A stretch of 64,000 nucleotides of DNA from a plasmid, in the sequence record NZ_CP033968.1; one strand, written 5' to 3'. The position numbers were made by a program, and so were the translations under genes. Within the stretch, counting starts at the first letter, position 1, and each line of letters begins with the position of its first letter. Positions 8,447-51,500 of this stretch are shown one piece after another. Below the pieces are notes generated by a model that did not search any database, was not told the origin of the DNA, and was given only the letters and a program-made list of their open reading frames with translations.

Positions 8447-8469
8447 GTCAATTGATTTGACACGCAGAC

Positions 8470-9237: not shown

Positions 9238-9246
9238 TTTTATGTG

Positions 9247-10748: not shown

Positions 10749-10756
10749 CTTGCCTC

Positions 10757-12133: not shown

Positions 12134-12135
12134 TG

Positions 12136-12960
12136 TCACTTTCCTGCAGCCAACTTCGTCTGGTTTTCCTTCAGGAACTCGGTGGGCTTGAGACCCCACT
12201 TCTTTTCCTCTTCGATCAGATAGCCGCTTGCGTGCCACTGTGTCACGGTCTTGCGTACGAAGTCGCCGTATGCCGTGTTGAGTTCACCGATGGGGACAGC
12301 GATTGCCCAGGGTTGAAGGTCCTGAACGGGCAACGGCGTCGTGTAGTCATTCCACTTCGCTTCGCCGCTTGAAATGATGGAGGCCAGGAGGGTGCTGTCC
12401 TGCACGAAGCCGACGCAGGAGCCCGTCAACAAGGCGTTCAGTGCTTCGACGTTCCCAGGGAATGCCACGATGTTCGCCCCGTACTTCTGCGCCACTGCCC
12501 GGTTGTAGTACGCGCCTTGCGTGCCACAAATGTCTTTGCCTCGGACATCTTCCCAAGTCTTGATGCCGGCGGACTTTCGGGCGAGCAGGCTCGTCCCGCC
12601 TGCGTAATAGAAGGGCTCGATGACGCCGACCACTTTCCGACGTTGGTCGTTGACCGACATGGTGGCAATCATGAGATCGATGCGGCCTTGCTGCAGGAAC
12701 TCGATGCGGTTGGCGGTCTGGACCGGAACCAGTTCCAGCTTTACCTTCAGTTTCTGCGCCAGATCTGCAGCCAAGTCCGGTTCCAGGCCAACGACGGCAC
12801 CCTTCGGATCGAGGTACCCGAACGGTTTGTAGTCGGTCTTCACGCCAACGCGTAGCACACCGGAGTTCTTAATACGATCCAGCGCGGGGCTTTGTGCATA
12901 GGCCTGAACCACAGTCAAAGCGGACAGGGCGGCGGTTGCCCATACGATCAGTTTCCTCAT
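12136..12960 (-). CDS. Periplasmic amino-acid-binding protein of ABC transporter (family 3 SBP).
   Basis: Signal peptide (MRKLIVWATAALSALTVVQAYA), then the SBP_bac_3-like fold (LRVGVKTDYKPFGYLD ...). Confidence 0.85.
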   Translation of the reverse strand: MRKLIVWATAALSALTVVQAYAQSPALDRIKNSGVLRVGVKTDYKPFGYLDPKGAVVGLEPDLAADLAQKLKVKLELVPVQTANRIEFLQQGRIDLMIATMSVNDQRRKVVGVIEPFYYAGGTSLLARKSAGIKTWEDVRGKDICGTQGAYYNRAVAQKYGANIVAFPGNVEALNALLTGSCVGFVQDSTLLASIISSGEAKWNDYTTPLPVQDLQPWAIAVPIGELNTAYGDFVRKTVTQWHASGYLIEEEKKWGLKPTEFLKENQTKLAAGK

Positions 12961-14008
12961 TGTCTTGTCTCCTTTTTTAATACCGCCAGAATGGCGGTGC
13001 GCTGTCGCGCGGTGTCAGGCGGCAGGCAGGGCGGATCGAAGCACAATGGCGTTGATCGGAGGCCGGAAAATCTGCCGCGTGATTTCAGTTTATGGGCTGT
13101 TGCATAAGCCAAGGGCGGTCGGCGTCCCGTATCAGGAAATCTAATACTGGCTAGCTGCAAGGCGTGCTAGTGGGGGAGGTCAATGCGGGTTTACCGAATT
13201 GGTGGATTCCCTATCTGATAGGAGGGTCACGGCAAGCACGGCTGCGCTTCCTGCGTGGTGCATAAGGCGGTGGGGGATTTTGGGGTCAGCGTGTGAGTAG
13301 ATTGCGCTCAGGGTGGCAGGTCTGAATGGGCAAGCGCGACCTCGGAATTCTCCCTATCCGACGTGGGTGGGTGGAAGAAGTTGCCTAGGATATTGAACGA
13401 GTAAACCTTGGCGGTAGACCGCCAGCGGAAGGTGAGGGCCAATGTTGGACTGTGTCCCCCTGTCCCGTTAGGCACCCGGCAGGTCTGCAAAGGGCGCGTT
13501 GATCCGCGAGAGGTTGGCGACCGCGCCTTTGAATGCAGGGTTCAATCGACATCCGGGAAGAGGCGTGCTTGCGTCCGGTGTTCTCTGCCGACGTCAGAAG
13601 CCGGGCAGGGGCACGAGCGGCGGCATTTTTCCCAAAGCAGGCCAAAACGCGAGAAGGGCGGGTGCCGAGAGATCGAAATCGATCTTTGCTTTTCGCTGGA
13701 ATAAGGCGAGCTGCATGATGGGCATTGAGGCGATGTGGCGAAACTGTCCTTCTAGAGTATGCGCCAGTAGGCCATGTCAAGTGCGCGTTGTCCTGTGCAA
13801 CAGCGTGGGATGCGATCCTTCTACCATGGCAGGGTGCATTTGCTTCGCCGAGCTTTTGCAGGGAACAGGAAGACGCCGTGGCGCCGCGGTCTGGGCTAAC
13901 CCGCGCTTCGCACTACCTGATCTGCAGGATGATCCAGCGCCAGCCGTTCATGCTTGACCTCGTCACCATGAACGGCAATACGACGATCGCGGATTTCGAA
14001 TACTGGCG

Positions 14009-15028
14009 TTACGTCGATGCGCTGCCGGCGGCCTGAAGCGGTGCGCTGCCCGCGGGCACCGGACTGGCATGGGTGACGTAGTGGATTGCCTGCAGCACCC
14101 CGTCGACCGAAGGCGGTGCGCCGTTATCGCCGACCGACACCGACTGGCCTGGCTTGTTGACGCCAAAATGCGGACGCGATGTCGCGGTGAACAGCATCAC
14201 CGTTGGCTTGCCAAGCGCGTCCGCCAGATGCACGAAGCCGGTGTCCATGCCGACAACCAGTGACGCCGCGTCGACGCGCTGCGCACACTCGGTGATCGAC
14301 ATGCGGGGCAGCACCTCGGCGCCGGGGATGGCCGCAGCCAGCGCCTGGGCTTCCTGCTGCTCCTTCTGCGAGCCCCAGGGCAACTGCACGCGATAGCCGC
14401 GCCGGGCCAGCTGATGCCCAACTTCCACCCAGTTCGCCTGTGGCCATTTCTTGATTTCGAGTGACGTCGCGTGGAACAGCAGCGCACGTGGCACGCCGTC
14501 GGCATTCAGCGGCGTGGCCGGTGCCGGCACCCGAAGCTCGGCCGTTTCGTGCGGCTCGATGTCGTAGCCCAGCGCGTTGGCCACCACCATGCGCATTTTC
14601 TGCCGGCAGTTGGCATCGCCATGCGGCCCGAAAATCTCGGTGTAGGCGAACACCGCCTTTGCTTCGCCAAGGAACTCGGCGGCATAGCCGAGGCGCCGCT
14701 TTGTCCGGGCGAGCCTGGCCGCAATGGCACTCTTGTAGACACCGTGAACGTCAATGGCCACGTCATAGCGCTCGCGGCGCAGCGACATCAGTGCGCTGAA
14801 TATGCCGCGCAGGTCGCGCCATTTGCGGCCATTCTTCTTGAACTGGCGCAGGGGCGGCGCAATGACACGATCGACGCCTACCGCCCAGTTGGGGATATCC
14901 GCGCACGACGCGTCGGCAATCCAGTCGATTTTGGCTTCCGGATAGGCGCGCCGCAGGTCGTACAGCAGCGGCAGGGTATGCACCATGTCGCCAAGCGACG
15001 TGATCTTGATTACCAGGATGCGCTTCAT
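14009..15028 (-). CDS. ADP-heptose:LPS heptosyltransferase (glycosyltransferase family 9). Start reassigned to MKRILVIK.
   Basis: N-terminal MKRILVIKITSLGDMVHTLP is the GT9/WaaC/WaaF hallmark. C-terminal GMDTGFVHLADALGKPTVMLF. Confidence 0.8.
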   Translation of the reverse strand: MKRILVIKITSLGDMVHTLPLLYDLRRAYPEAKIDWIADASCADIPNWAVGVDRVIAPPLRQFKKNGRKWRDLRGIFSALMSLRRERYDVAIDVHGVYKSAIAARLARTKRRLGYAAEFLGEAKAVFAYTEIFGPHGDANCRQKMRMVVANALGYDIEPHETAELRVPAPATPLNADGVPRALLFHATSLEIKKWPQANWVEVGHQLARRGYRVQLPWGSQKEQQEAQALAAAIPGAEVLPRMSITECAQRVDAASLVVGMDTGFVHLADALGKPTVMLFTATSRPHFGVNKPGQSVSVGDNGAPPSVDGVLQAIHYVTHASPVPAGSAPLQAAGSAST

Positions 15029-15861
15029 GCGGGGGACGGCTTGATTGAGCGAGCGCGGCCGGATCTGCCCGCGGCGGGCCAGTATGCCCCAGGCCGCCGC
15101 TCCAGCGCGTGACAATTGCGTAATGAACGACACACTCTCAGCTCGCCATTCGGCCCTGCGTCGAGCGGGCCGTTGGCGCGTTGTTTACAGGGCAGGCTGG
15201 TCCGGTCAAAAAGTGCGTACTTCGGTATTGCGCTTCGTACCCTTGGTAAGCGTTGGCGTCGCCATCCGCAGAATGCGCCTCTGCAGACCGCGACAAGGCC
15301 GGAGCCTACCGGCAGTTTTCCGAATTGTTCACTATCGTGCCTCCGGAGACTCCTCGCCGTGAAAGGCATTGCGCTTCCATTGGGCGCGAGGTTGCTGCAC
15401 CCAAAAAGGCTCACTCGAAAATTCCTGCCTTGCCCCTGGACGGGTTGGCGGGCGACGCCGCCTTCAAAATGCGCCTGGACACGCCGCACTCCCCAAACCC
15501 TTCTATATATAGAGGGCGGGAAACTCGCCGGCGCAGTCGTCGCGCCGCCCGCCGCCCGCCTCCCTCGTCGGCCCGTCATCTCGCGCAGCATCGGCATCGG
15601 CGGGCTGAGGTTGGCGCGATCCCCGTCTCAAACTAAATGGGCACACTTGCAAAATGCCTCATAAGGTACTTTTCGTGCCAGTCCCCGCCAAAAATGCACT
15701 TTTTATGTGTGCATGATAACTACACTTATCAAGCATAGAAAAAATAAGGTACGGGTCACCTAGTATCCCGCACAGGGCAGGGCCTATAATGTGACCCATT
15801 CGCGCGTGACCCGCGCCGGCGCTGGGCTGGCGGGTGGCAGCGCCCACCGACCCTGAACCAC

Positions 15862-17136
15862 ATGGACCGCGATCCCGACACTCTGCAGCAGGTCACCCAA
15901 TCCCACCTGGAGGCCGCCGCCGACGCATGGCAGGCGGGCGAGCGGGTCCCCGGGCTGGCGTCACATTCGCCGTGGGAGGCGCTGATCGCGGGGCAGTGGT
16001 ATCCGAACAAGGCCATTCTGGCGCTCGCGCACCGCCTGGCGGGTTTCGGCGACCTCACGGCAAAAACGCTGGCCGGCGCCGCCGTCCGCCGGCGACTGGT
16101 GGCGCTGGATATCCCGCTGCGGAATGCCAGACAGGAGACGAGCTCCGACACGCGTCCGGATTGGTCGCGGCTCCAGGCGCACCACGTGGAAGCCGGCGCC
16201 GCCGAACTGTCCCGGGAACTGGAACACTTGATCTCGATAAAACAGATTGCCCACAAGCCGCACGAGACCGGCTGGCGGGTAGGCGTGAATGGGCTCTGGA
16301 TCGGGCCATATACGCTTGGCACCGCGGCCTGTGACGTGGCGGGGCTGCGTTTCGAGCGGGAGATGACACCCGTCGAATATGCGCAGTACCGCGCGCACCT
16401 GGAGTCGCTCGGCTTTCCGGTGAAACGTGGCCGGACACCGACCCGCACCAAACCCACCTGGGGCGCCGGCGAATTGCGCGCCGCGGCAGCGGCGCTGGTC
16501 GGGAGGGATCTTGAAGCCGCAGACGCCGCCGAAGGCGAAAGCGAACCGCTCCAAGTGGTCCTGGACGGCCGGGCGTACCCAGCGTCCGACCTGCTCGGTC
16601 TGCCGGCCGGCCAAACGCCCTCTGCGCAAGACCTGACCGCGATCGCCGAAGCCGGGGGCGCCTTGCGTGCCGCTCCTGACCCTGTTGACGACGCGCTGGA
16701 AGCCTTGGCCGCCCAGAGCGGGTTGCCCACGGAAGCGGCGCGTCAGGTGCGGGGCCGGATCGGGCAGGGACGGTTCCGCGACGCGCTGCTCCAGGTCCAC
16801 GGCCGCTGCGTCCTGACCGGCATCGCGACCCCGGCCGTCCTGCGCGCGGCGCACATTCATCGCTGGGCGGACTGCGCCGACACACCGACCGCCCGCCACG
16901 ACATTGACAACGGCCTGCTGCTGGCCGCGAACCTCGACTGCCTGTTCGAGACCGGGCTGATCGCCTTCCACGACGACGGCCAGATCCTGATTTCACCCGA
17001 ACTGGACGAAGCCGCGCGTGACGCGCTGGGCCTCAGACCGGAACTGCGGCTGGCGGTCGTACCATCGGCTGGCCAGCGCGGTTACCTCGCCAAGCACCGC
17101 GCACGCACCCGGGCCATGCGCGGGGCTTCGGCATGA
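15862..17136 (+). CDS. HNH endonuclease-domain protein (C-terminal HNH_2-type domain) with a ~290-aa N-terminal region of unknown function.
   Basis: C-terminal GQGRFRDALLQVHGRCVLTGIATPAVLRAAHIHRWADC ... DIDNGLLLAANLDCLFETGLIAF matches the HNH (PF13391-like) nuclease motif. Its stop overlaps the integrase start (ATGA). Confidence 0.65.
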   Translation: MDRDPDTLQQVTQSHLEAAADAWQAGERVPGLASHSPWEALIAGQWYPNKAILALAHRLAGFGDLTAKTLAGAAVRRRLVALDIPLRNARQETSSDTRPDWSRLQAHHVEAGAAELSRELEHLISIKQIAHKPHETGWRVGVNGLWIGPYTLGTAACDVAGLRFEREMTPVEYAQYRAHLESLGFPVKRGRTPTRTKPTWGAGELRAAAAALVGRDLEAADAAEGESEPLQVVLDGRAYPASDLLGLPAGQTPSAQDLTAIAEAGGALRAAPDPVDDALEALAAQSGLPTEAARQVRGRIGQGRFRDALLQVHGRCVLTGIATPAVLRAAHIHRWADCADTPTARHDIDNGLLLAANLDCLFETGLIAFHDDGQILISPELDEAARDALGLRPELRLAVVPSAGQRGYLAKHRARTRAMRGASA

Positions 17137-19277
17137 CGGCGCCGGCGACTGCCGTCGATACGCCCCTGCGGCGACGCCGGTCCGTCACGCGCCGGCAGCT
17201 GCATCGCGGACACTTCGGGTTCCTGCGGGCCATCATCCAGGGGCTGCACGCGCGGGCCATGTGGGAACGCTATCTGATGGAGGAGGGCGAGATCGAGGCC
17301 GATCAGGAGTTGCTGGCCCGATCCCCGGAGGGCGAGGAGAGCGAGGCGGCCAACGACGAAGCGGATCCCGCCGCCCGCGCGTTCGCCACCCACCCCAAGG
17401 TCCGCCGGGTCACGGCGTGGCTGCGCAGCGAGCTCATCGCTGCGGCAACCCGGGCCCAGCGCCCCGGTACCGCCCGCCGTTTGAAGCTGGAAGCCCGGGA
17501 CCTGCGGAAGATCGGCCAGAAGGGGCTGGGCCTGCCGTCGCTCGAGGAATTTGTGGCCGAGACCGGCATGGACGGCTTTGGCGAGTCCGAGCAACTGGCC
17601 GCCTACGAGGAGCGCTATGGCAACGCCCTCAAACGGGAATCCAAGCGCGCCAGGATGATGCGTCGCCAGCTCGAGGCGATCGACTGGCTCGAAGAACGGT
17701 ACGCCCAGCCCGTCCTCGCCGGCGACGCTTGCCGGGCGTGGCTGGCCGAGCCCCTCGCGGAGCGCCTGGAGGCGGCCGGGGCCCTGACGCTCGCAGATCT
17801 GCTCGATCGCATCGATGGACTGGGCACCGGCTGGGCCCGCGGCCTGCCAGCGATCGGCGCCGGCAAGGCAAGGGCGATCGAAGCCTTCCTGGCCACCCAC
17901 GCCGAGACGCTGGGCCGGGTGATCGGCAACCACGTGGCGGTGCCGCGCAGGAAGCGTTATGCGCATGAGATGGCCACGGTCGTTCCCCGCGGCAAGGAAA
18001 ACGCCCTGGTCCCGCTCGACAAGCTGCTGCTGCCCGCCCATCTGGACGGTCGGGACGGCGCCTACCGCCTGCCGCAGGCCCGCTGCCTCATCAACGCCCA
18101 CAACGACTACGAAGCCGTGCTGTCCTGGCTCCGGTCCAAACCCGGCCTGGCGCCGGATCGGATCTTGCGCCTGCGGGAAAAGCGCAAGGATGTCGGCACA
18201 GGGCAGGGGCCCTACGACTGGCTGCATTACCTGTCGAATACCCAGCGCGCGTACCGGAAGGAGGCGGAGCGCTTCCTCCTGTGGTCGATGTTGGCCCGCG
18301 GGAAGCCCCTGTCCTCCATGGACACGGACGATTGCATGGCCTACCGGGACTTCCTCGCCGACCCGCCGAAGGAATGGTGTGGCCCGCGCTCGCGGGAACG
18401 ATGGACACCCCTGTGGAGGCCTTTCGAGGGACCGCTCAATCCCCGTGCCCAAGGCTACGCGATCGGTGTGCTGACCAATCTCTACACCTACCTGAACGCC
18501 AAGAACTACCTGGCGGGCAACCCGTGGCAGGGCATCCACGTGCCGACGAGCGCCAAACCCGAACTGGACGTCAGCCGCAGCCTGACCGAAGACCAGTGGG
18601 CCTTCGTCAAAGGGTGTCTCGCCCGCCTGCCGGCGACGTCCATCCATCGCCGGTTGCAGGTTGCCTTGCCCCTGCTGTACGCGACGGGCCTGCGCCTGTC
18701 GGAGCTGGTCGCCGCCAGCACGGATGACCTGGAGTGGGTGAGCCTCGCCCAACCCGGTACCGGCGAGCGGGAGGAGGGCTGGTGGCTCACGGTGATCGGC
18801 AAGGGAAACAAGCTGCGCCGCGTGCCGGTACCGGACGCCACGGTCAACGCCTTGGGCGGGTACCTGGAATCGCGCGGATTCGCCAGTGATCCTGCCCGGT
18901 GCCGCGGGGTGGCGCTGCTAGGCCACGCAACCGACCAGGTCGAACGGGCAGGGGGCTGGGCAAAGGTGGACATGGCTCCCGCCGAGGCAGGATTGGCGGC
19001 AACCACGTTGTACCGGCAGATCAAGCGGTTCTTCCAGGCCTGTGCGACCGAATTGGAAGCGGTCGACGCCCGGGGCGCTGCGCGCCTCGCGGCAGCCAGC
19101 ACGCACTGGATGCGGCACACCCATATTTCCCATGCATTGGCCGCTGGCGCACCGCTCGAGGCCGTCAAGCAAAACGCGGGGCACGCATCGCTTGATACCA
19201 CCACCCGCTACGTCACGACCGAGGACGCCCGCCGCCGAGCTGCAATGAGGAAGTTCTGGGATTCGCAATCAACGTAA
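17133..19277 (+). CDS. int: Large tyrosine recombinase/integrase (714 aa) with an N-terminal extension containing a helix-hairpin-helix-like region.
   Basis: The C-terminal half parallels the first recombinase (GKPLSS..D...Y..FL; YLAGNP; catalytic ASTHWMRHTHISHAL ... GHASLDTTTRYV). The N-terminal ~280 aa are extra (LTLADLLDRIDGLGTGWARGLPAIGAGKARAIEAFL). Confidence 0.8.
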   Translation: MTAPATAVDTPLRRRRSVTRRQLHRGHFGFLRAIIQGLHARAMWERYLMEEGEIEADQELLARSPEGEESEAANDEADPAARAFATHPKVRRVTAWLRSELIAAATRAQRPGTARRLKLEARDLRKIGQKGLGLPSLEEFVAETGMDGFGESEQLAAYEERYGNALKRESKRARMMRRQLEAIDWLEERYAQPVLAGDACRAWLAEPLAERLEAAGALTLADLLDRIDGLGTGWARGLPAIGAGKARAIEAFLATHAETLGRVIGNHVAVPRRKRYAHEMATVVPRGKENALVPLDKLLLPAHLDGRDGAYRLPQARCLINAHNDYEAVLSWLRSKPGLAPDRILRLREKRKDVGTGQGPYDWLHYLSNTQRAYRKEAERFLLWSMLARGKPLSSMDTDDCMAYRDFLADPPKEWCGPRSRERWTPLWRPFEGPLNPRAQGYAIGVLTNLYTYLNAKNYLAGNPWQGIHVPTSAKPELDVSRSLTEDQWAFVKGCLARLPATSIHRRLQVALPLLYATGLRLSELVAASTDDLEWVSLAQPGTGEREEGWWLTVIGKGNKLRRVPVPDATVNALGGYLESRGFASDPARCRGVALLGHATDQVERAGGWAKVDMAPAEAGLAATTLYRQIKRFFQACATELEAVDARGAARLAAASTHWMRHTHISHALAAGAPLEAVKQNAGHASLDTTTRYVTTEDARRRAAMRKFWDSQST

Positions 19278-19302
19278 TTGAAATCAACCTATGGGGGAAG
19301 CG

Positions 19303-19632
19303 ATGTTCGAAGTTCGTCGAGCACGCCTGCTAGCGAAGATGCTAGCGCGTGCCTACCGCATTGAAATGCGGCTCGGCAAGAGGCTGGTCACTACCGTCAG
19401 CGGCTGGGCTTTACAACGTCGCACAGTGAGCGTGGACATTGCAGAGACCGCGTGGGTTGCTAGTGACAAGCCTCGCGTGCGCCTAGTCGTTGACTTCATC
19501 AACGAGCGCATCGAAGTTCGGCAGTACGCAAGTGGCAGAGGCGACGAACTGAAGTTCATGGTTACGTCACTTGAGCAGTTCAACACCGTTGGCCACCAAA
19601 TCGTCGCGTACCTGGTACGCACCTTCCCCTAA
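19303..19632 (+). CDS. Hypothetical protein.
   Basis: ORF with GGGGGAAG before the ATG at 19303. No recognisable domain. Confidence 0.3.
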   Translation: MFEVRRARLLAKMLARAYRIEMRLGKRLVTTVSGWALQRRTVSVDIAETAWVASDKPRVRLVVDFINERIEVRQYASGRGDELKFMVTSLEQFNTVGHQIVAYLVRTFP

Positions 19633-19704
19633 GTTATTGGGGGTTGGAAGATCGGTACTGCCAACAGCTTGATTCGGGTCCACGATAGACAAAGGGCAGG
19701 GGAC

Positions 19705-20325
19705 ATGAAAGAAGACATTCTGGAGCAGATGGTCGACGAGTACCTCCAGCACAAGGGGTATTTCACCCAGCACAACCTGAAGTTCCGACCAGCCAAAGAC
19801 CATGTCGACTATGTCGCCCAAGCCGATGCGGTTCACAGCGACGTCGACGTGATCGGCATTCACCCGCTAATGCAGGGGCCCGAACGGGTGGTGGTAGTCA
19901 GTTGCAAGAGCTGGCAGCAAGGCTTCAGCCCGCAGTATTGGAGTGATGCGATCGCCAAGAACAAGAAGGTGAATGGTAGGGAAGCATGGCTGGCATTTCG
20001 CGAGCTCGCCAGGCCGAAATGGGCGCAGGCGTTTCGCGCTGAGGTGGAGCGAGCCACGGGCGCAAAGGCATTCACGTACGTAACGGCCGTGACGCGGCTC
20101 ACTGCCCAAGCAGATCGGACTGCTTGGGAACAGCACCCAGAGTTCCGCCAGAGCTTGAATGGAAACCCCATCAGGATACTGACGTTCGACGATATGTTGA
20201 GTGAGCTATTTCCGACGATCAACCAGACAGTCGCCTCCTCACAACTCGGTCGCCTGCTTCAACTGATCAAGGCATCAGGTTGGGCGCTAGCTTCGAGGAA
20301 TGAAAATGGGCCATCCTTGGTCTAG
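19705..20325 (+). CDS. Hypothetical protein with a restriction-endonuclease-like (PD-(D/E)xK-type) motif.
   Basis: GGGCAGGGGA RBS. Motif DVDVIGIHP ... VVVSCKSW resembles D-(x)n-(E/S)xK nuclease cores. This is weak, motif-level evidence. Confidence 0.35.
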   Translation: MKEDILEQMVDEYLQHKGYFTQHNLKFRPAKDHVDYVAQADAVHSDVDVIGIHPLMQGPERVVVVSCKSWQQGFSPQYWSDAIAKNKKVNGREAWLAFRELARPKWAQAFRAEVERATGAKAFTYVTAVTRLTAQADRTAWEQHPEFRQSLNGNPIRILTFDDMLSELFPTINQTVASSQLGRLLQLIKASGWALASRNENGPSLV

Positions 20326-20430
20326 GTCACGGTCACTGCCAAAGCCTCGCGCCGTACTCCGGACGTGTCATGATCGCCGATCGCCGCGCGGCAATTCAGT
20401 TACATTGCGCCTAACCGTACTAGCTGACAA

Positions 20431-21249
20431 TTGACCCTAATGAATACCAAGGTTTTTGACTGGAGAATGCGCCGGAACTGGCTGGCTAGCATCCGCCACT
20501 ATGCAGGCCATGTGCTAACCGTCGAACTGCGACAGCATCTCTCGCAAGAGCGGCCGAAATGCTGGTCGGACGACTTTGCCTGGCTACCCGACTCGGAATA
20601 CGTCCTACCCGAATTCGTCGCTGGCTTAACCAGCTACTACACGCATTTCAAGGGCTTTCATGGCTGCCGCCCGTTGAAGCTGGCCAGCTACTACGAGCGC
20701 GGCTTGCTCGGGCAAGACAGCGAACTTCTTTGCGACGCGTTCCGCGAGATTTTTTCGGATGTACCCAAGGAGGACGTGGATAGTGCCATCAAGCAGTTCG
20801 CCGACCGCAGCGATAGGGAGCGGGGCAAAATGTGGCTCGTGGGAAGTGACGAATTTCTAGTAAAACAATGCGGCCATTACCTCATCCAAGGTAGTGAATA
20901 TTTGATGGCGCTCGCGGCGCATCTGGGCCGTCCCCTGAGTGGTGAAGACTACCGCTTCCGGCTTCGCAACTATGGCATCCCGACAATTCTGGAGGTCGAT
21001 GTCCCAGTAGGCCTCGTGCCTGCGGCGCAGCATGTTGAAGTGGCGAAGATGATCTTGTCCGAGTGGGGGCAACTAGCCGCTCGGCGCCCCTTGGGTTTTG
21101 GGGGTGAGCCCCCCTGCTATGTCGTTCGCCAAGACATCCCCCCCGATTGCGTTCAGGGCCATTACCATCCCAAACAGATTGTTGACCCCCATCAGGGAAA
21201 CCGGCCGTACATCAATGGCCTGCTGACCTGCGATGTGTGCGGCGGGTAA
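20431..21249 (+). CDS. Hypothetical protein (272 aa), C-terminal CxxC.
   Basis: Long ORF co-oriented with its neighbours. No recognisable domain. Confidence 0.35.
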   Translation: MTLMNTKVFDWRMRRNWLASIRHYAGHVLTVELRQHLSQERPKCWSDDFAWLPDSEYVLPEFVAGLTSYYTHFKGFHGCRPLKLASYYERGLLGQDSELLCDAFREIFSDVPKEDVDSAIKQFADRSDRERGKMWLVGSDEFLVKQCGHYLIQGSEYLMALAAHLGRPLSGEDYRFRLRNYGIPTILEVDVPVGLVPAAQHVEVAKMILSEWGQLAARRPLGFGGEPPCYVVRQDIPPDCVQGHYHPKQIVDPHQGNRPYINGLLTCDVCGG

Positions 21250-21306
21250 ATCCGCCGCCAAGCGTGTGGCGACAACACAGACCGGCTTTGAAGAGATACG
21301 AGACTA

Positions 21307-22497
21307 ATGGAGCAACTTGCACAGGTTTTGAGGCAGATCGGGGACCTGCCCCAGATGGAATCGCCGGAACTCAACTTCTACGCGGTTGGCGGCGCGGGGT
21401 ATTTGGAGAACCCTACGTCCGACCTGATGGCTCTTTTCATGGGTGCGGAACCACAAGCGCCGCGATGGCTAGCAAAAGCACTTCTATCGTGTCTCGCAAA
21501 TAGAGGCCTGGCTGAAGGGATCATAGTCGAGTCGGTCGACTGGGACGGCGTTACCGCTGAACGGGAAGTTGCCCAGACCGATCAAGAGAGTGATTCTGTA
21601 AAACGCCTTGATCTCGTGATTTCTGACGGGGACTTCGTTCTGGGCATCGAGAATAAGGTCTACGCCACCGCACGCGGAAACCCGTTCCACGTTTACGACC
21701 GGCTGCTTGCTGAACGCGCAGCCGGTGGGCCAATTATCAAATGCGTACTCCGCCCGACCGATAGGACCTCCGATGTTCCATTGGGATGGCCGGTGGTCAC
21801 CTATCCCGATCTCGTGAAGACAGCGCTCGATCTTCTAGGCCAGGAATTCGTTCGGGCACCGGTATCAAAGTGGCACTTTTTCTACAGAGAATTTCTCAAC
21901 CACCTAGAGTCACTCGCCAACCCAGAGAGCGGCACCATAATGTCAGACGCAGCATTCAGCTTTGCCCTGAAAAACTTCCATGCACTTAGCCAGGCCGCCG
22001 ATCTCCTAGGCGAGTTCAAATCGCAGCTTGAGCACGATGCCACGGCACGCGTGCGAGAACGTCTATCGGCTATGACACTAGAAGGGTCCGTCGCGCTGAC
22101 TTCGAAACAGCAGGTCTGGCGATCCCTTAACCAGCATGTAGTCGAGATTTATCCTGCTAGCTGGGGAAAATATTCGAAGGTGGTACTGGCTTATGGTGAA
22201 GATGAAACGGATGAAGATCATGCGCTGTACTTCTACGTTCTCGGCTACATCAGCTTCGGTACCGAAAAGCAAAGCATCGAAGAGATCAAACAAAGGTTTT
22301 ACGCCGACACGAAGAACGAAGTCAGTTCATGGCGTACCCACTCGGACCCGGCAGACAATTTGTTTGAGGAGGGTCGATCGACCAAGTATCTCGGAATCAG
22401 CGGCATGCCCAAGGATGCGACGCTGAGCGGGGCGTTGCAAGCGCTGGAAGACCTTGCAGCCTGGATGCAGCAGTTTGTATTCACCCCGGCGCAATGA
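21307..22497 (+). CDS. PD-(D/E)xK nuclease-superfamily protein (396 aa) with the nuclease motif in the N-terminal third.
   Basis: Canonical motif RLDLVISDGDFVLGIENKVYA (D ... D/E-x-K) at residues ~100-125. Confidence 0.5.
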   Translation: MEQLAQVLRQIGDLPQMESPELNFYAVGGAGYLENPTSDLMALFMGAEPQAPRWLAKALLSCLANRGLAEGIIVESVDWDGVTAEREVAQTDQESDSVKRLDLVISDGDFVLGIENKVYATARGNPFHVYDRLLAERAAGGPIIKCVLRPTDRTSDVPLGWPVVTYPDLVKTALDLLGQEFVRAPVSKWHFFYREFLNHLESLANPESGTIMSDAAFSFALKNFHALSQAADLLGEFKSQLEHDATARVRERLSAMTLEGSVALTSKQQVWRSLNQHVVEIYPASWGKYSKVVLAYGEDETDEDHALYFYVLGYISFGTEKQSIEEIKQRFYADTKNEVSSWRTHSDPADNLFEEGRSTKYLGISGMPKDATLSGALQALEDLAAWMQQFVFTPAQ

Positions 22498-22604
22498 CTT
22501 CGGCAATTAAGCCCGGCGCGACGGAGGTAATCTAGCCGCCCCCCATGTGCGCCCTGTGACACAGATCAAGACCAACCATCACCAGAATCGCAAGACGATC
22601 AACA

Positions 22605-23297
22605 ATGACGAATTCTCTCATTCGACCCACAGTCGGCGAGGTGTATCAACTCCTCCAAGGCGTCAGTGGCCTGCTCGTACATTTTTCTGGGGCGCCGAAA
22701 GGCGCGGGGAAAACTGACGCTGAAAGATTGTGGTTCCCTGACGACCTGCAGAAGGTACTTGACGGGAAAGCGCAAGGAGGACTCTCCGCGTCGGTGGTCA
22801 TGCCAGGCGACCGGTTTGGGCAACACTATGCGAGCAATGCGGTTGGTTGCGTTGGTGTGATTCTCGGCCTGCACTCTCCGCAATCCCTACGGTGTGCAGA
22901 TGCGGCAGATTGTGGCTCGTGGACTGACCAGACGGGAAGCCGAATGTGCGACGCGCCAGCGAGCCTCTCAATTCAAGAATTGGCGCTGACGATTTCCAAT
23001 CGGCGCCAAGGTTGCTACAACGAATGGGTGATTGCCGACTACATCCCGCTTGGAATTCTCGCGATGCCTCCGTTTGAGGTGCGAACCGGAGGGTCGCCTT
23101 CTGACTTGCCAGGCGGCGGCGACCTTTCGCCCGAACTCGCCGGAGACAGCCCCGTTGAGGTTCCAAAGTTTCTCGATCTGGCAAGCGTGCGCAGGGTCTT
23201 TCCGAGTCAGCCGCTCTACACGATGACTGGAGAAGGCATTGCCTTGGTAGGGCCAGACGACAGTACCTCAATCATTCTTCACGACCAGATCTATTGA
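22605..23297 (+). CDS. Hypothetical protein (230 aa).
   Basis: ORF co-oriented with its neighbours. No domain recognised. Confidence 0.35.
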   Translation: MTNSLIRPTVGEVYQLLQGVSGLLVHFSGAPKGAGKTDAERLWFPDDLQKVLDGKAQGGLSASVVMPGDRFGQHYASNAVGCVGVILGLHSPQSLRCADAADCGSWTDQTGSRMCDAPASLSIQELALTISNRRQGCYNEWVIADYIPLGILAMPPFEVRTGGSPSDLPGGGDLSPELAGDSPVEVPKFLDLASVRRVFPSQPLYTMTGEGIALVGPDDSTSIILHDQIY

Positions 23298-23511
23298 GCA
23301 GGGGCGGGCCAGCCAATGGCGGCATGACATGGCAGGGGAACGGCCGGTCACCCAGACCAATGATCAGACCACTTGATCTTCTGCCGACGATGAGTATCAT
23401 GCTTGGAGCGCTGCCCAAGCCTTCCGTGCACCCGCCGACTCGGCGGATGGTAAAACAGGGCCTATTCCACCTCCTCATTCTCGTGCTGACTTCTGTCGCG
23501 GCCGAGGCAAT

Positions 23512-25098
23512 GTGCACACCTCTCACGCCGCGCAAAATGGAAGACTCAGCATGCCTGCTCTTGCACACCCCTATGGGTCCAACGGGTTCTGGAACGATCT
23601 GGCCAGACGACTCGAGCCTTTCTTGGGCAACGTCAAAGTCTGTCTGGGTGGGAATTGGTACGACCGCTTCGAAGACCTGTTCACCAAGCCTGATTTCGAG
23701 ACTGTCGCAATCGCCGAAGGCGGTCTGCCCCAAGCACGCTATCTGATTGAGCTGCAAAACTCAGCAGATGTCCTGGCGAGTCGCTACGACTGGCTAATGG
23801 CAGGAGCATCGGAGGCAGAGTGTGTCGCCGCTCTGCTAGATATGTGTCGAGACTCCGATCAATGGCCAACCGCTATATCTCGAGCCCACAATATCCTTGC
23901 ATTCTCGCGCGACAACGTCCCGTTTGCAGAGATTAGACCAGTCCCTGAGCCGCCTCGCTGGTCCAGCGCGACACTTGACCGCGCCGAGCACGCGCTAGGT
24001 CGGTTGCACAAGAACGGCGACTCGGAAAAGGAGTTCGCCAATCGAATCAAGCGATGGCCGGGATTCGAATCAGTCCAGGTAGGTGATCGCGAGCAAACGA
24101 CGCCGCAGTGGGGTCACTGGCCTAGCCCGGCGGAGTGGCTGATATTGGCTCGACAGCTTCTCAGCATCGCGGGAGCAACCGAAGCCGGCACTGCGCAAGC
24201 GCAGGCGCTGGTTGCCGCCATCTTTGACGTGGCCAGCTGGCATCACCTTTGCGGGCTGATGCCTGGTTGTCGCGATGCCCAGTGGTGGGCATTGCAGGGC
24301 CCGTTTTTAACTTCTCTCGGACGGAATTCTGAGGACGAACGGGTGTTCCCTGGCCCTGTAGAGGCCTTCATGGATTTCATTACTCGCGGGACAAAGCTTA
24401 GTCCTGATGATGGCCCTTGGACCGCCCGTATAAGCTGGCCTTTGGAAATGCCCTATATAACGCTTGAATCCGAACGCCGCCACGATGGAGGGCCCTATCC
24501 GTTGCCAATTTTGGGGGCGAGCATGGAGGCGGTGTGCCATACCTCTGCTAGACCAGAGAGCCTTGCTGCCATAGCGTCGCCACTGAGCACTAACGACCTT
24601 GAAGGGGTGTTAGCGTGCTTTGTGATCGACCCTAACGACGACAGCTACTCCACCCGCATTTTCCACAGAGCGAACTTTGGTGGGCTGCTCTGCAAAGGCT
24701 TCGTTACGAGCGATGGCCCATATATCACTTGCGGAGACGGCTGGATGGACAGCACTCCGCTCGGCGTCTCGATGCTTCGGAAGTTTCAGCCCCATCCAAA
24801 GAATGGCCGCCCCCAGAAAGAGGGATGGTGGCTGGTGAAGTACTCCAGTGAGGCCAGGGTTGATCTGACGCGGTTCTCGGAAACACAGATCCAGCAGCTC
24901 AGTAAAGAGTTTGGCATCGTGGTTGCCGGTGAAGCCGAGTACGGGGACGACGAAGAGCGGTTCTTTTCCTCACCTGCCTGGTCAGCTCTGCAGGACTGGG
25001 CACGGTCACACCCTGAGTTGGCGAAAGACTTAGCCGAAGGGGCGTCCTACTTACCAGGCTGGTACCAGCGAGCAAAGCGCAAGGCGGCGTTGCACTGA
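23512..25098 (+). CDS. Large hypothetical protein (528 aa). Start uncertain; an alternative start is MPALAHPYG at 23551.
   Basis: Long uninterrupted ORF in a lower-GC region. No recognisable catalytic motif. Confidence 0.4.
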   Translation: MHTSHAAQNGRLSMPALAHPYGSNGFWNDLARRLEPFLGNVKVCLGGNWYDRFEDLFTKPDFETVAIAEGGLPQARYLIELQNSADVLASRYDWLMAGASEAECVAALLDMCRDSDQWPTAISRAHNILAFSRDNVPFAEIRPVPEPPRWSSATLDRAEHALGRLHKNGDSEKEFANRIKRWPGFESVQVGDREQTTPQWGHWPSPAEWLILARQLLSIAGATEAGTAQAQALVAAIFDVASWHHLCGLMPGCRDAQWWALQGPFLTSLGRNSEDERVFPGPVEAFMDFITRGTKLSPDDGPWTARISWPLEMPYITLESERRHDGGPYPLPILGASMEAVCHTSARPESLAAIASPLSTNDLEGVLACFVIDPNDDSYSTRIFHRANFGGLLCKGFVTSDGPYITCGDGWMDSTPLGVSMLRKFQPHPKNGRPQKEGWWLVKYSSEARVDLTRFSETQIQQLSKEFGIVVAGEAEYGDDEERFFSSPAWSALQDWARSHPELAKDLAEGASYLPGWYQRAKRKAALH

Positions 25099-25210
25099 TC
25101 TCCGGTCAGCATTCTGGATGTACATGCGCGAGAGAGGGGTAAGGGAGGCAAGGCCACGGCCAGAGTTGATTGGTACAATCCGCCGTGAGCCTTAGCCACC
25201 TACTTTCGAT

Positions 25211-25543
25211 ATGAAACAGTTCACGTTTGAGGATGTTCTGAGTCTGACTTTCGACGAGCTTGGCGCCATAGAAGACCCCATGCAATTGGCCGCCACCGCG
25301 CAAGTCTCACCGATGCTTGTACGGTACGTCATCAGAACGGACCAACTCGAAGAGAGGTACCGCGGCGTCCGAATGCGCACCTTGCTCGGTGCAATCGACG
25401 TAGCTGCCGCGGCAGTAAAATGGCCAAACGTGGTCGGGCAGAAAGCTCTGTTGGCACAGAAGGATGCCGACGTTGATGCCTATTTGGATGAGCTACAACC
25501 GCATGTAGCCAAGGCAATCGAATTGGCGCCCAAGTACCACTGA
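25211..25543 (+). CDS. Hypothetical small protein.
   Basis: 110-aa ORF followed by a hairpin terminator. Confidence 0.35.
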   Translation: MKQFTFEDVLSLTFDELGAIEDPMQLAATAQVSPMLVRYVIRTDQLEERYRGVRMRTLLGAIDVAAAAVKWPNVVGQKALLAQKDADVDAYLDELQPHVAKAIELAPKYH

Positions 25544-25554
25544 CCCATGAAAAA

Positions 25555-25575
25555 AGGCCCGCGACTTAGCGGGCC
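25555..25575. terminator. Bidirectional rho-independent terminator hairpin between convergent genes.
   Basis: GGCCCGCGACTTAGCGGGCC, flanked by an A-run upstream and a T-rich stretch downstream. Confidence 0.4.
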
Positions 25576-25605
25576 TTGGTTCATCAAACGGTAGGTTGCG
25601 TACGA

Positions 25606-25974
25606 TTACTTCATCGAGGGCCAGCCCATCGGCTCGGCCTCGTTCAGCGCAACATCTGCCTCATTGACCATGGTCGTCACGACCGCAAACTGTTCCTCCG
25701 TCAACTTCTTTGCGGAAGCCAATCCGATGGCTTCCGAGTACTTGCGAGCAGCTTGCTCGCACTGCGTCTTTTGCTCGCCCAAGGTCTGAAGTTCCTCAGG
25801 GTCCGTATCGTCGTCAGAGTTGTCCAGGGCTTTATCGAAGGCGCTGGTGAGGTGACCGTCAAGGCGTGCCAGATGACGCTGGCACTTGCGGATGTGTCGT
25901 TTAACGTGGTTGACTTCGGCTCGATCTGCGAGAGCCACCGGCTCGCTAGATGAACCACCCGTGTCAGTTGTCAT
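25606..25974 (-). CDS. Hypothetical acidic protein. Start reassigned to MTTDTGG.
   Basis: GGAG RBS 8 nt upstream of the ATG at 25974. Confidence 0.4.
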   Translation of the reverse strand: MTTDTGGSSSEPVALADRAEVNHVKRHIRKCQRHLARLDGHLTSAFDKALDNSDDDTDPEELQTLGEQKTQCEQAARKYSEAIGLASAKKLTEEQFAVVTTMVNEADVALNEAEPMGWPSMK

Positions 25975-26192
25975 AATCAACTCCAGGAAAGAGACTATTG
26001 CTCTGAGCTGGCGCCAATTCAAGTTGAGAGGGTGATCAATCCTCCTGGTCGACAATCTACCCGAAGGTTACGCCGTTTGGAAGGCGGCAGATGCGTCCGG
26101 GAACCCAAGCTCTGAGCGCCGGCCCACACGGCAATCCCCGGGCTCTCCTGCCGTGCTAGATTGCAGAAATCTATAGGCCAGAGGTACAAACC

Positions 26193-26372
26193 ATGGAAGT
26201 GGAAGGTCAAGTCCTATACGTCTACCGCTGTCCGACGTGCGGCCACCGTGGCGAAGTTCATTTCGCCGACGACTCGCATGATGCCGCTTCCCATACTTGC
26301 GCTTCGTGTGGTGGTCAGGTCTCGCTCGAGTGGGATGGCGGCGTGACGTTCGATGTTGTGCCAAAGTCCTGA
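26193..26372 (+). CDS. Small zinc-ribbon protein (59 aa, CPTC ... CASC). Below the threshold of the supplied ORF track.
   Basis: AGAGGT RBS 6 nt before the ATG. The two CxxC pairs are spaced as in a zinc ribbon. Confidence 0.4.
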   Translation: MEVEGQVLYVYRCPTCGHRGEVHFADDSHDAASHTCASCGGQVSLEWDGGVTFDVVPKS

Positions 26373-26623
26373 TCTACCTACCAAGGGCACGCCCCAAAAT
26401 CCTTCACCTCCACGCCCCAAATCTGTTCCCCTTTGCGCCGGCGGTGGCGTCAAGTTGCACAGATGCGCCTTCGCCGCTAATATCTTGCGGTGGATGGCCT
26501 CCCAACCTGCCGACGGGTTAAACGGCCTGCGATACCTACGGACACTCGTCCTCGGCATGTGAATCTCCATTTCATTGTGCCCGCATGTAATCGTCGGTTG
26601 TGGGCAAGAAACGGAGTTTTCCC

Positions 26624-27238
26624 ATGTTGCTGCTATTCCCATCCGCTCTCACTCAGAACTCAGCTGGCGAACACAAGAAGGCCGCGCGAGAGCAATTTTC
26701 TGGCATCAAATCGTCGCACTTGAGCGAAGCCATCGCGTCTGGTTTTGGCTATCAGTCCCATGCGGCTCTGCTCGCCGCGCTGGGTAGCAACGCCCGCCCG
26801 CGCAGTAATTTCTCTTTGATTGGTTTCGGGAAGCGGTTGACTGAACTCGGATACGAACGCCCAGCGGATTTCCTGGCCGACCAGGACGTGCCCTGGGCAG
26901 TTCAATGCCTGGTGTCCCTCATGATCGAGGCGGGATTTCGAGACTCTCTTGCTAGCAACAGTTCACGGATCGGCGTCACCAAGACAATTGATGCGCTCAA
27001 TGTCGCCGGTTGCACCGAGTTCAATTTCAAGGCCCTAGGCCGGCAAGCGCAACAGCAACAGACCCGAGCCTTGCGCGAACTCTTCAGCACGGTTATCGAG
27101 TTGCAAGTCTCGGTGCGAGACGGCGATCGCGTATTGAGATCGCCGATTGTCCGAGAGGTAGGAATCGAGACGCCAACCAACTGCATATTGTTCTCGCTAG
27201 CGGACGTTATTGTCCGAGCGGCCCGGTTAGCAGCTTAG
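26624..27238 (+). CDS. Hypothetical protein.
   Basis: AACGGAG RBS before the ATG at 26624. Confidence 0.4.
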   Translation: MLLLFPSALTQNSAGEHKKAAREQFSGIKSSHLSEAIASGFGYQSHAALLAALGSNARPRSNFSLIGFGKRLTELGYERPADFLADQDVPWAVQCLVSLMIEAGFRDSLASNSSRIGVTKTIDALNVAGCTEFNFKALGRQAQQQQTRALRELFSTVIELQVSVRDGDRVLRSPIVREVGIETPTNCILFSLADVIVRAARLAA

Positions 27239-27703
27239 CGCCCTACGTGTGACGCTTGATGCACATAACGTCTATTATGTTAAATGCGCCAAGCAAACCA
27301 GCCGGGGAGATGCGAGATGGTTAAAAGGCGGGTATGATGCCCATTTTCCCGGCTTCGGTGCCGTGTCTGGCACATTGTTGATCGGGGACTTCCTCAGCGG
27401 ATGTCTGGTGTTGTTTGCTTCCTTGTTTATGGTGTTCGAGGTCGAGATCGGCGTCGAGGCTCATTTGAAAGGAAAAAAATGAAACTGAGATTCAAGCTGA
27501 AAAGCAATCGAAGGGGCGCGGGGTTACTGGGGGTATGCGCACTGGACACTGCAGGGGAGTCACGATCGCATACGTGGCAGACTTAGGCCCAAAGAGTGCC
27601 TCAGCCCCCGCCAATTCCAAGAAACGCTCCACTGGGGCGTTTTTTTTCGACCCTCGTCAGCTGGCGGGCGTCGCACGAAGGATGAACTAGTAGGAGTAAC
27701 AAG

Positions 27704-28102
27704 ATGAGTTTTCATTTTCATCCGATTCCGGCTGCCGGGAACGGCGGCGGCGTATCGGTCGTGGCCGCATACGCGAGTTTCAACCCCCAACACGATAAAA
27801 CCTGGGAATTCTCCGGCTGGCTCGAATCGGTGCGAACACGAGCCCTCGACTACTTCCCAGACCTCAGCGAGCAGGTGTACTTGCGGATGTACCTGCCGCA
27901 GAATGTGCTCAACCTATACAGCAAGGGTGGCGGAGTCCGGGAAATGGCTCTGCGTCACCTCATCCCTGGCAATTCAAGACGTCATACTCGCATCGCGTAC
28001 TTCGACTGGGTCACGAGCGACCAAATCTTTGACGTTGAGGCTGACTTTGACCAGTTCATCCAGTTCGTGCAAATGAACTGGCCGAGGCTCCGGAGCTACT
28101 GA
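27704..28102 (+). CDS. Hypothetical protein.
   Basis: GTAGGAG RBS before the ATG. Confidence 0.4.
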   Translation: MSFHFHPIPAAGNGGGVSVVAAYASFNPQHDKTWEFSGWLESVRTRALDYFPDLSEQVYLRMYLPQNVLNLYSKGGGVREMALRHLIPGNSRRHTRIAYFDWVTSDQIFDVEADFDQFIQFVQMNWPRLRSY

Positions 28103-28483
28103 TCTGGCATTGGCCGAGCGCCCCAGAACAGAGGCCACTCTGGCCGGCGCTGGCCGCACAAAACTAATGTCAGCAGGCCATTGTTAATCAACACCCGGCT
28201 CGCGTTCGAAAAACCGACAGGAGAGCGCCCGAATCGGCGCATATGGCACAGCATGCGGGCAGTCCATCCATAGCCGAGGGTGAGGAAATTCTGGCCGGAC
28301 GCCGAACTGCAGCCGCGAGCAGGTGCGGCAGATGGAATCCTCTGGCACGACATAGGATGGCATCGGCAGGGGTGGGGGCTCAAAACCGGCACTCACGAAA
28401 TTGAACTGGATATTTGTACAGTACTCCCATTGTAGATCGGCATCTGGCCGCGCCCTTGCGACCCGGGTGGTGCTTACGGCGGT

Positions 28484-35594: not shown

Positions 35595-35683
35595 CGTGAC
35601 GTTTTTCCTTGCCCCGCTACCATCTAGCCCCTAGAATCGGCTCAAACTGCATTTTGTGACGTTTCATACTTGGAGGGTTGCCT

Positions 35684-50610: not shown

Positions 50611-50623
50611 GGGAAACGGTCTC

Positions 50624-51445: not shown

Positions 51446-51500
51446 AAAACTCCAGCAGGGCGGCGAGGTGGGGGCGTGATTTCCGGGGTTTGAGGGTCCG

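Follow-up and report, generated by a model that had tools for sequence, protein, structure and literature searches.

A probable mosaic of independent modules on a pMOL30-type megaplasmid: a candidate dif-like site, a DUF3701-type tyrosine recombinase and defence-flavoured single genes

Results

A nine-gene array on a conjugative megaplasmid

Nine co-directional, closely spaced plus-strand genes lie at 15862-25543 of the 64,000-nucleotide (nt) stretch of plasmid record NZ_CP033968.1 that we analysed (the window, from whose first base positions are counted unless another record is named), and the array ends at a hairpin. It opens with a gene for an HNH-domain nuclease and one for a 714-amino-acid (aa) tyrosine recombinase, continues with six genes of 113, 218, 272, 396, 230 and 528 aa, which we refer to as the cargo, and closes with a 110-aa open reading frame (ORF). 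Our subject is the recombinase, a candidate recombination site upstream of its operon, and the relation of both to the remaining genes. A first-pass annotation of this DNA had named the ORFs as far as the 528-aa gene; all of them were recovered on the plus strand in the positions assigned to them, as was the reported ATGA stop/start overlap of the HNH and recombinase genes (17133-17136). The 110-aa ORF (25211-25543, plus strand) was absent from that list and belongs to the array as its last member; it is annotated in pMOL30 and has no family match. A GC-rich, terminator-like hairpin (25554-25577, no strand assigned; 9-bp stem with seven GC pairs, called by a terminator scan) separates the array from a convergent minus-strand ORF.

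Plasmid pMOL30 of Cupriavidus metallidurans CH34 matches 15-26 kb of the window in a megablast search of PLSDB (record positions 213.7-224.0 kb of pMOL30). Coverage of this region is 94-100% on pMOL30 and four sister plasmids and 71% on a fifth, NZ_CP026546. Plasmids of this type are typed as conjugative (MOBP, MPF_F, rep_cluster_332), and by these matches the window is part of a pMOL30-type conjugative heavy-metal megaplasmid of C. metallidurans. Its downstream part reaches the partition and replication (par/rep) genes of pMOL30, parA at 35678-36808 and repA at 39169-40527, both on the minus strand. This places the region on a megaplasmid, some 16 kb away from par/rep, rather than at an integration site in a chromosome. 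We found no tRNA gene in the 64-kb window and no Rfam family in 15.0-26.5 kb, and a tRNA-targeted island was rejected on the first of these counts. A phage origin was rejected as well: among PHROGs only the integrase and the HNH domain were matched, and the rest of the nine-gene array had no match.

The HNH and recombinase genes have a GC content of 69.2%, the cargo 56.9%, and the next 38 kb of the plasmid 58.0%. The step that had been described as a lower-GC cargo block is real, but its reading is reversed: the cargo has the usual composition of the plasmid, and the HNH-recombinase pair is the outlier.

The recombinase is linked to plasmid maintenance genes

The recombinase gene (17133-19277, plus strand) encodes a 714-aa protein with Pfam domains DUF3701 (PF12482, aa 186-273, 4.1e-19) and Phage_integrase (PF00589, aa 503-698, 1.7e-13), and its catalytic residues R521, K557, H658, R661, H684 and Y693 are invariant in an alignment of five relatives. 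XerC and XerD models gave the best scores for the catalytic domain, but at 84 bits against an equivalog cut-off of 335; compared with XerC and XerD, its N-terminus is long and a helix-hairpin-helix domain, DUF3701, is added. The combination of DUF3701, core-binding and catalytic domains has been described as the ‘TnpR subgroup’ of simple tyrosine recombinases (Smyshlyaev et al. 2021, PMC8138268), and by its domain content and its similarity to Tn4401 TnpR (see below) the window enzyme belongs to this DUF3701 subgroup.

Relatives of the recombinase occur on 1868 plasmid records (tblastn), among them the Tn4401 resolvase TnpR, with 34% identity over aa 233-707 (E=6e-60). Tn4401 TnpR shares the domain architecture of the window recombinase, and its annotation as a resolvase fits the role that we propose for the latter, that of a probable plasmid multimer or cointegrate resolvase acting on the site upstream. 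The two differ in that the window protein extends about 140 aa further at its N-terminal end and lies on a plasmid backbone near par/rep, whereas Tn4401 TnpR lies in a Tn3-family transposon next to tnpA; unlike the latter, the window recombinase operon can hold passenger genes.

The first-pass annotation had taken the integrase for the carrier of the cargo. We surveyed recombinase loci by scanning one genome per species, which yielded 35 loci, all from Burkholderiales, and the six cargo genes are present in none of them. In 25 of the 35, homologues of parA, parB or rep lie within 10 kb of the recombinase gene, several directly adjacent to it. An integrative element would have two flanking att sites, often at a tRNA gene, and cargo that travels with the integrase. 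The par/rep linkage, the lack of a tRNA gene, the presence of one site per replicon (see below) and the absence of the cargo from all 35 loci argue against an island integrase; the recombinase appears to be a plasmid-backbone enzyme of resolvase type, tied to par/rep and to its own upstream site.

A candidate crossover site and a natural recombinant

Aligning four plasmids that carry unrelated sequence further upstream revealed a block that starts abruptly at a palindrome (15709-15736, plus strand). This candidate res/dif-like site is an imperfect palindrome of 11-6-11 layout, GTGCATGATAA-CTACAC-TTATCAAGCAT, with an invariant core TGATAA-N6-TTATCA at 15714-15731. Core sites of the Xer and Cre type consist of two inverted arms around a short central region. 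All 17 loci with a recombinase of at least 47% identity have a single copy of the core ahead of the recombinase gene, always in one orientation, at 112-203 nt from the start codon where there is no passenger gene and at 779-3008 nt where passenger genes are present. There is one site in the 64-kb window (0.01 expected by chance) and one exact copy in the complete 233.7-kb pMOL30, so that a single candidate site per replicon adjoins the recombinase gene, as expected of a resolution system. Strain comparison, which had been proposed as a way to map att sites, pointed to this candidate crossover site (see below) and comes as near to such a mapping as sequence data allow.

The central 6 bp of the site vary among the loci, and five outer arm positions co-vary with dyad symmetry kept. 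Compensatory double-sided arm changes numbered 19, against 7.8 +/- 1.9 in shuffles, and this number was reached in 0 of 500 shuffles; controls with slid positions all scored far lower. XerCD/dif/cer, Cre/loxP of P1 and ResD/rfsF of F likewise use a single site with inverted arms and a 6-8-bp centre, and the inner ATAA/TTAT of the window site is that of dif. The placement of the recombinase gene beside the site and near partition genes is also as in plasmid dimer-resolution systems.

Immediately downstream lies a conserved non-coding block (15741-15790, plus strand), kept in the four plasmids, which contains AAAATAAGGTACG at 15741-15753 and a TATAAT hexamer resembling a -10 element at 15785-15790. 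It is probably the promoter/operator of the HNH-recombinase operon, an assignment that we base on conservation, since a sigma-70 consensus scan called no full promoter upstream of the HNH gene.

The comparison of otherwise identical plasmids points to use of this site in nature. Relative to the plasmid BS1 p1, the window is 100% identical at 7418-15735 and again at 19095-24102; relative to pMOL30 it is 100% identical from about 19250 to 28759. Sliding profiles delimit a replaced tract (15736-19094, plus strand) in which the HNH and recombinase genes are 67-95% identical to the BS1 p1 and pMOL30 alleles, with both flanks at 100%. BS1 p1 has the left flank and spacer of the window (TACA, where pMOL30 has CGTA) and is of pMOL30 type from the first base after the right arm, and the three-way alignment confines the crossover among window, BS1 p1 and pMOL30 to the 11-bp right arm, CTTATCAAGCA. 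On its right side the divergence tapers off inside the conserved 3’ part of the recombinase gene, a pattern that homologous exchange would leave. As the simplest history we infer two exchanges between two co-resident plasmids, first a site-specific one at the palindrome and then a homologous one in the 3’ end of the recombinase gene. A natural recombinant junction inside the right arm argues that the palindrome would be a crossover site of the recombinase and not merely an operator.

In the literature searched, the DUF3701 domain is mentioned but a target site never is, and we found there no experimental study of the site of either Tn4401 TnpR or the window recombinase. The candidate 28-bp target site for DUF3701 recombinases, together with a natural recombinant junction, would therefore be new, in a modest sense.

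The tnpA-tnpR intergenic region of Tn4401 (positions 2957-3065 of our locus L096) contains GAAATAA-TCGTTA-TTATCGC about 40 nt upstream of tnpR. Tn4401 tnpR, like the window recombinase operon, has a short upstream intergenic region with an ATAA-N6-TTATC element; this inner sequence is what the Tn4401 element shares with the Cupriavidus site, a weak resemblance that we treat as a lead and not as evidence. The pMOL30 record contains another tyrosine recombinase gene (69699-72121) with a gene for a DNA-binding protein beside it, and just upstream of both, at 72214, there is a perfect palindrome, AGATAA-ATCTAG-TTATCT, which may be the site of this second recombinase.

A passenger slot between site and recombinase

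The first gene of the array (15862-17136, plus strand) encodes a 424-aa nuclease with an HNH_2 domain (PF13391, aa 316-370, 1.1e-10 in Pfam), which PADLOC HNH and REase models also match, behind a variable N-terminal region of putative reader type. The HNH region matches VcaM4I (PDB 6yex) at 1.1e-14 with the single sequence and at 5.8e-35 with a family profile. VcaM4I is a modification-dependent enzyme of EVE-HNH architecture (PMC7897488). Enzymes like VcaM4I and ScoMcrA join a variable N-terminal reader to a nuclease, and the HNH_2 domain of the window protein is clearly homologous to theirs. VcaM4I differs in having an EVE reader, whereas the N-terminal 290 aa of the window protein gave no match in the local Pfam set, a set without PF26345, and EVE, SRA and SBD domains were not detected in them. 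Homologues at 52-59% identity carry PF26345 (ScoMcrA_N), in a match marked as weak; the closest relatives of the window protein, like the protein itself, showed no such match. Throughout the family the linker and HNH domain are retained and the N-terminal domains are swapped. The protein is probably a type IV (modification-dependent) restriction enzyme.

Six loci have no gene in the slot that the HNH gene occupies between site and recombinase. In pMOL30, the window, USMAA2-4 and loci L024, L027 and L028 it is filled by HNH proteins whose N-termini differ; elsewhere it holds a KAP P-loop NTPase gene (L025), a P-loop NTPase gene together with an HNH gene (EM10, L023) or an unrelated 199-aa ORF (L030). 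In USMAA2-4 the HNH and recombinase genes are 69 nt apart, which makes the translational coupling seen in the window a local feature.

The HNH family is also found away from recombinases. A 19-kb stretch of the Paraburkholderia pallida chromosome (L021) carries a full-length relative at 54-55% identity, with no integrase, together with a PDDEXK_4 relative of the 396-aa cargo protein (52%) and DUF4007, PAPS_reductase, BrxC-like and GmrSD genes; we read the DUF4007, PAPS_reductase and BrxC-like genes as SspBCD-like. Another relative, with a different N-terminus, adjoins an AAA ATPase pair and an E1-like gene in a defence island that likewise has no integrase. Within 49487-52092 of the pMOL30 record, a second gene with an HNH signature is divergent from the gene for a 391-aa tyrosine recombinase.

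It is possible to see the HNH and recombinase genes as one mobile unit, in which the HNH protein cuts or targets DNA and homing or gene conversion accounts for the spread of both genes. Such a unit would explain the joint replacement of the two genes: the 3.4-kb divergent tract covers exactly both of them in otherwise identical plasmids, the genes are coupled by ATGA, and at least six different plasmids or contigs of Cupriavidus carry them together. However, an HNH gene precedes the recombinase in only 4 of the 35 survey loci, all of them from Cupriavidus, and the recombinase gene often follows its site with nothing in between. The KAP NTPase and 199-aa alternatives in the slot, the members of the HNH family that stand alone in chromosomes and the spacing in USMAA2-4 also speak against it, and the HNH domain is of the restriction-enzyme type (HNH_2/VcaM4I) and not of a homing-endonuclease family. 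We regard a mobile unit as highly improbable. By the same observations HNH and integrase are not an obligate pair: most integrase loci have no HNH gene. The HNH gene appears to be one of several alternative passengers between site and recombinase, and a variable passenger slot within a resolvase operon is again new in a modest sense.

Probable separate histories of the cargo genes

The 396-, 230- and 528-aa genes had been put forward as an undescribed three-gene system, and the whole array could be read as an integrase-delimited mobile island that carries such a defence system (PD-(D/E)xK nuclease plus 230-aa and 528-aa proteins). Several features are in keeping with this: the nine genes are co-directional, closely spaced and end at a hairpin; the cargo includes a nuclease and a protein with the fold of ADP-ribosyltransferase (ART) toxins; and the block is intact in five complete pMOL30-type plasmids. 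In addition, single-gene relatives lie in defence neighbourhoods elsewhere (a type I restriction-modification (R-M) locus, CBASS, an Ssp/GmrSD-like island and a TIR/caspase neighbourhood), which bears out the notion of accessory DNA rich in nuclease and toxin-type genes.

Co-occurrence, however, points the other way. We searched each cargo protein by tblastn against 72,556 plasmids, and outside the pMOL30 lineage the plasmids that carry relatives form disjoint sets. Five loci with relatives of the N-terminal domain of the 528-aa protein have neither a 396-like nor a 230-like gene. A metagenome scan recovered 30 further loci of the 230-aa family, of which one, identical to pMOL30, has the 528-aa gene; on ten other metagenome contigs of at least 5 kb there is no 396-, 528-, 272- or 218-like gene. 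Outside the lineage we saw just two reunions, one of 230- and 218-aa relatives in changed order and one of HNH and 396-aa relatives separated by about 8 kb. The former is on metagenomic L062/63, where a remnant of a recombinase 3’ end, a 230-like gene and an 85%-identical relative of the 218-aa gene stand in reshuffled order. In the plasmids, contigs and loci covered, the 396, 230 and 528 families thus never co-occur outside the near-identical pMOL30 lineage. To this must be added the evidence from the recombinase, which in the 35 survey loci never accompanies these genes and which has a single site per replicon and no tRNA gene nearby, and the existing listing of the nuclease family as a candidate that consists of one gene (see below). 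In BS1 p1, moreover, the 528-aa gene is disrupted and the genes around it are whole. We consider the island improbable.

An integron-like cassette array was also rejected. Integrons resemble the window in that a tyrosine recombinase stands beside same-strand, individually shuffled genes; they differ in that the window array lies downstream of the recombinase gene rather than upstream, and it is absent from 35 of the 35 related loci. Neither attC-like nor any other shared repeats or hairpins were found at the gene junctions, which argues that the array is not integron-like, nor across 15.5-29 kb, and the integron-integrase model TIGR02249 scored 27 bits against a cut-off of 265. The downstream genes appear to be independently inherited, defence-flavoured single genes that elsewhere never accompany the integrase.

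The 396-aa nuclease and the smaller cargo proteins

The best defined member of the cargo is the 396-aa protein (21307-22497, plus strand), in which an N-terminal PD-(D/E)xK core had been proposed. This is borne out by a match to Pfam PDDEXK_4 (PF14281) at aa 23-198 with 5.4e-35 and 121 bits against a cut-off of 22.3. The accompanying claim that none of the proteins matches a nameable system does not hold for it, nor does its undescribed status: PADLOC model PDLC04981 matches aa 2-343 at 3.7e-44, and nine further models of PDC-S26, a family already listed as a single-gene phage-defence candidate, match as well. The match to PDC-S26 is near full-length, and the relatives are likewise single genes in R-M operons and on plasmids, although the identity of the window protein to members on enterobacterial plasmids is only some 27%. 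PDC-S26 has the status of a candidate, and we found no experimental validation of it in the literature searched. Relatives occur on 48 other plasmids, mostly of Klebsiella and Raoultella and also of Vibrio and Acinetobacter (tblastn); in Vibrio one relative sits inside a type I R-M operon, with hsdS on one side and hsdR on the other. Shedu, with which the nuclease had been contrasted, is represented in none of the nine proteins, neither by a PADLOC Shedu model nor by Pfam DUF4263.

For the 218-aa protein (19669-20325, plus strand; the RefSeq start corresponds to 19705) a restriction-endonuclease reading had been built on the motif DVDVIG...SCKSW. It is weakly backed by Mrr_cat (E=0.021; 15.4 bits, below the cut-off of 21), and the protein is a possible Mrr-like PD-(D/E)xK nuclease. 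On plasmids outside the lineage its relatives were found in Azospirillum only (tblastn). The 113-aa ORF (19291-19632, plus strand) is a hypothetical protein in the pMOL30 annotation and has no significant family match.

The 272-aa protein (20431-21249, plus strand) has a scattered distribution of its own, with relatives on plasmids of C. necator, Halioglobus, Vibrio, Comamonadaceae, Thauera and Paenibacillus that lack the other cargo genes (tblastn). Neither it nor the 230- and 528-aa proteins matched Pfam, NCBIfam, PHROG or PADLOC, and the 528-, 272-, 396-, 218- and 230-aa proteins and their profiles found nothing significant among PDB sequences. On a Vibrio plasmid a relative of the 272-aa gene lies directly upstream of a CBASS operon. 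A 31-nt inverted repeat (21213-21243 and 28153-28183, 84% complementary) marks the recurrence, inverted and 7 kb downstream, of the 3’ end of the 272-aa gene, perhaps a paralogue remnant.

The 230-aa protein has a predicted ADP-ribosyltransferase fold

The 230-aa protein (22605-23297, plus strand) is a member of an orphan family in which the motifs HFSGxPKG, S63, DCG and YNEW are invariant across eight relatives. The best structural match of its model by two methods is CteC, and AcrF11 is among its structural neighbours; on this basis the protein is predicted to have an ART fold, closest to CteC. H26, S63 and E140 are invariant, with H26 at the end of beta-1, S63 in beta-2 and E140 at the start of a later strand, a spacing that is ART-like. 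By this spacing and strand position the three residues may form the catalytic set. CteC is an R-S-E enzyme of Chromobacterium violaceum that ADP-ribosylates ubiquitin at Thr66 (PMC10810742). The spacing of the three motifs resembles the pattern of the wider ART superfamily (DarT, Tpt1, exotoxin A). The differences from CteC are several: motif I has Arg in CteC and would have His in the window protein, the ubiquitin-binding insertion is missing from the latter, and CteC is a secreted effector whereas the 230-aa protein is not found in such a context. Neither sequence similarity to CteC nor a sequence-profile match to it was detectable. An orphan ART-like family would be, in a modest sense, new.

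Plasmid relatives of the 230-aa protein outside the lineage were found in Rhizobium etli and Methylorubrum (tblastn). Downstream of another DUF3701 recombinase gene, and within a few kb of it, of HU and of a trio of recombinase genes, a relative of the 230-aa gene adjoins a type II CBASS operon with SAVED, CD-NTase, E1/E2 and JAB genes. A different relative adjoins TIR, caspase and helicase genes. The sole recurrent neighbour of the family in the metagenome loci is an FRG-domain protein of 320-500 aa, encoded directly upstream on the same strand in L078, L080, L081 and L094, and the two genes may form a two-gene module.

Two orphan domains are joined in the 528-aa protein

A word-indexed homologue search of the 528-aa protein (23512-25098, plus strand) returned only its own cluster, whereas exhaustive HMMER gave 272 relatives, each of which matches either aa ~20-370 or aa ~380-525. 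The protein is thus a fusion of two orphan domains. The C-terminal domain mostly occurs on its own, as a protein of about 150 aa; tblastn with the plasmids found relatives of these C-terminal 150 aa only, in Pseudomonas, Ralstonia, Methylorubrum and Phyllobacterium. It is fused to an N-terminal Glyoxalase_8-like domain in P0063, P0070, P0100 and P0125, of which only P0100 passes the Pfam gathering score and the other three fall below it. The interruption in BS1 p1 is an insertion of about 1.3 kb (L008 27104-28457, corresponding to window position ~24100) that splits the gene.

The company that these domains keep could point to another function for the cargo, namely that of anti-defence or establishment genes that help the plasmid to enter a host, with the ART-fold protein inactivating a host immune protein as AcrIF11 does. 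The C-terminal domain is common on large conjugative plasmids, amid HU/H-NS, LigD, methyltransferase and toxin-antitoxin genes; relatives of the N-terminal domain lie near KorA, PcfJ, DUF1643 and SNF2/methylase genes, contexts typical of conjugative elements; and AcrF11, as said, is a structural neighbour of the 230-aa model. For the 528-aa protein an anti-defence or establishment role is the main alternative, given how common its C-terminal domain is on conjugative megaplasmids. For the cargo as a whole we think it unlikely, in view of the defence neighbourhoods in which relatives of several of the genes are found.

Discussion

The data are best explained, with a probability that we put at roughly 0.7, by a mosaic in which a conjugative megaplasmid of pMOL30 type carries several mutually independent modules. 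The identifiable parts are all of known kinds: a recombinase of the TnpR subgroup, a type IV-like HNH enzyme, PDC-S26 and an ART fold.

The first module would be a plasmid-maintenance recombination unit, made up of one dif-like 11-6-11 site and the DUF3701-type tyrosine recombinase, with the site in or next to the promoter region of the operon. Cre/loxP, ResD/rfsF and Xer/cer recombine direct repeats and so convert dimers to monomers. By the same logic a recombinase dimer would bind the two arms of each site, and the two directly repeated sites of a plasmid dimer or cointegrate would be recombined to give monomers; we lean towards this mechanism, with some reserve, and the related Tn4401 resolvase TnpR would work alike. 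Resolvase activity at the site is what the arrangement of site, gene and backbone suggests. Autoregulation is likely, since the site overlaps the control region of the operon.

The second module would be the passenger gene in the slot, here an HNH_2 nuclease whose N-terminus is putatively of reader type and which would share the promoter of the recombinase. Type IV restriction is the activity that its homologies suggest, and the odds that it restricts incoming modified DNA seem to us about even. The third module would be the DNA between the recombinase and par/rep, which would gather co-directional single genes. Each of these probably acts singly, in defence or in conflict between elements, and would not be mobilised by the recombinase. 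Defence or toxin roles of the cargo are suggested by the company of relatives and by predicted folds. More specifically, the PDDEXK_4 protein might serve as a nuclease effector, a suggestion that we make tentatively, and just as tentatively the 230-aa protein might be an NAD+-dependent ADP-ribosylating effector.

It is tempting to speculate further that the slot is a recombinase-linked docking place for defence genes, that the 230-aa ART protein is the effector of an undescribed NAD+-dependent family, or both, though we give this only an outside chance. Plasmids of Burkholderiales may swap HNH type IV enzymes and KAP NTPases through a crossover at the res site combined with homologous exchange in the 3’ end of the recombinase gene, in which case a maintenance recombinase may double as a device for exchanging defence genes. 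The ART protein may for its part act in defence or anti-defence with interchangeable upstream partners, such as the FRG-domain protein elsewhere and the PDDEXK_4 nuclease or the 528-aa orphan here.

The mosaic explanation corrects a tempting misreading, in which an integrase beside odd nucleases is taken for a new defence island. A tyrosine recombinase near par/rep on a large plasmid is likelier to be a resolvase than the vehicle of its neighbour genes. It also offers a precise 28-bp candidate target for DUF3701 recombinases, to which the resolvase of Tn4401, the transposon that carries KPC, also belongs. Further handles are the variable slot for defence genes in the operon, the orphan ART-fold family, and the two orphan domains, found repeatedly on megaplasmids of environmental and clinical origin.

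Other features of the window

Three genes outside the array complete the picture of this part of the plasmid. A gene for an Xre-type helix-turn-helix protein lies at 28484-29455 on the minus strand. An IS66-family transposase gene occupies 32342-33931, where pMOL30 has ISRme15, and is followed by a gene for a SRAP peptidase at 33983-34624.

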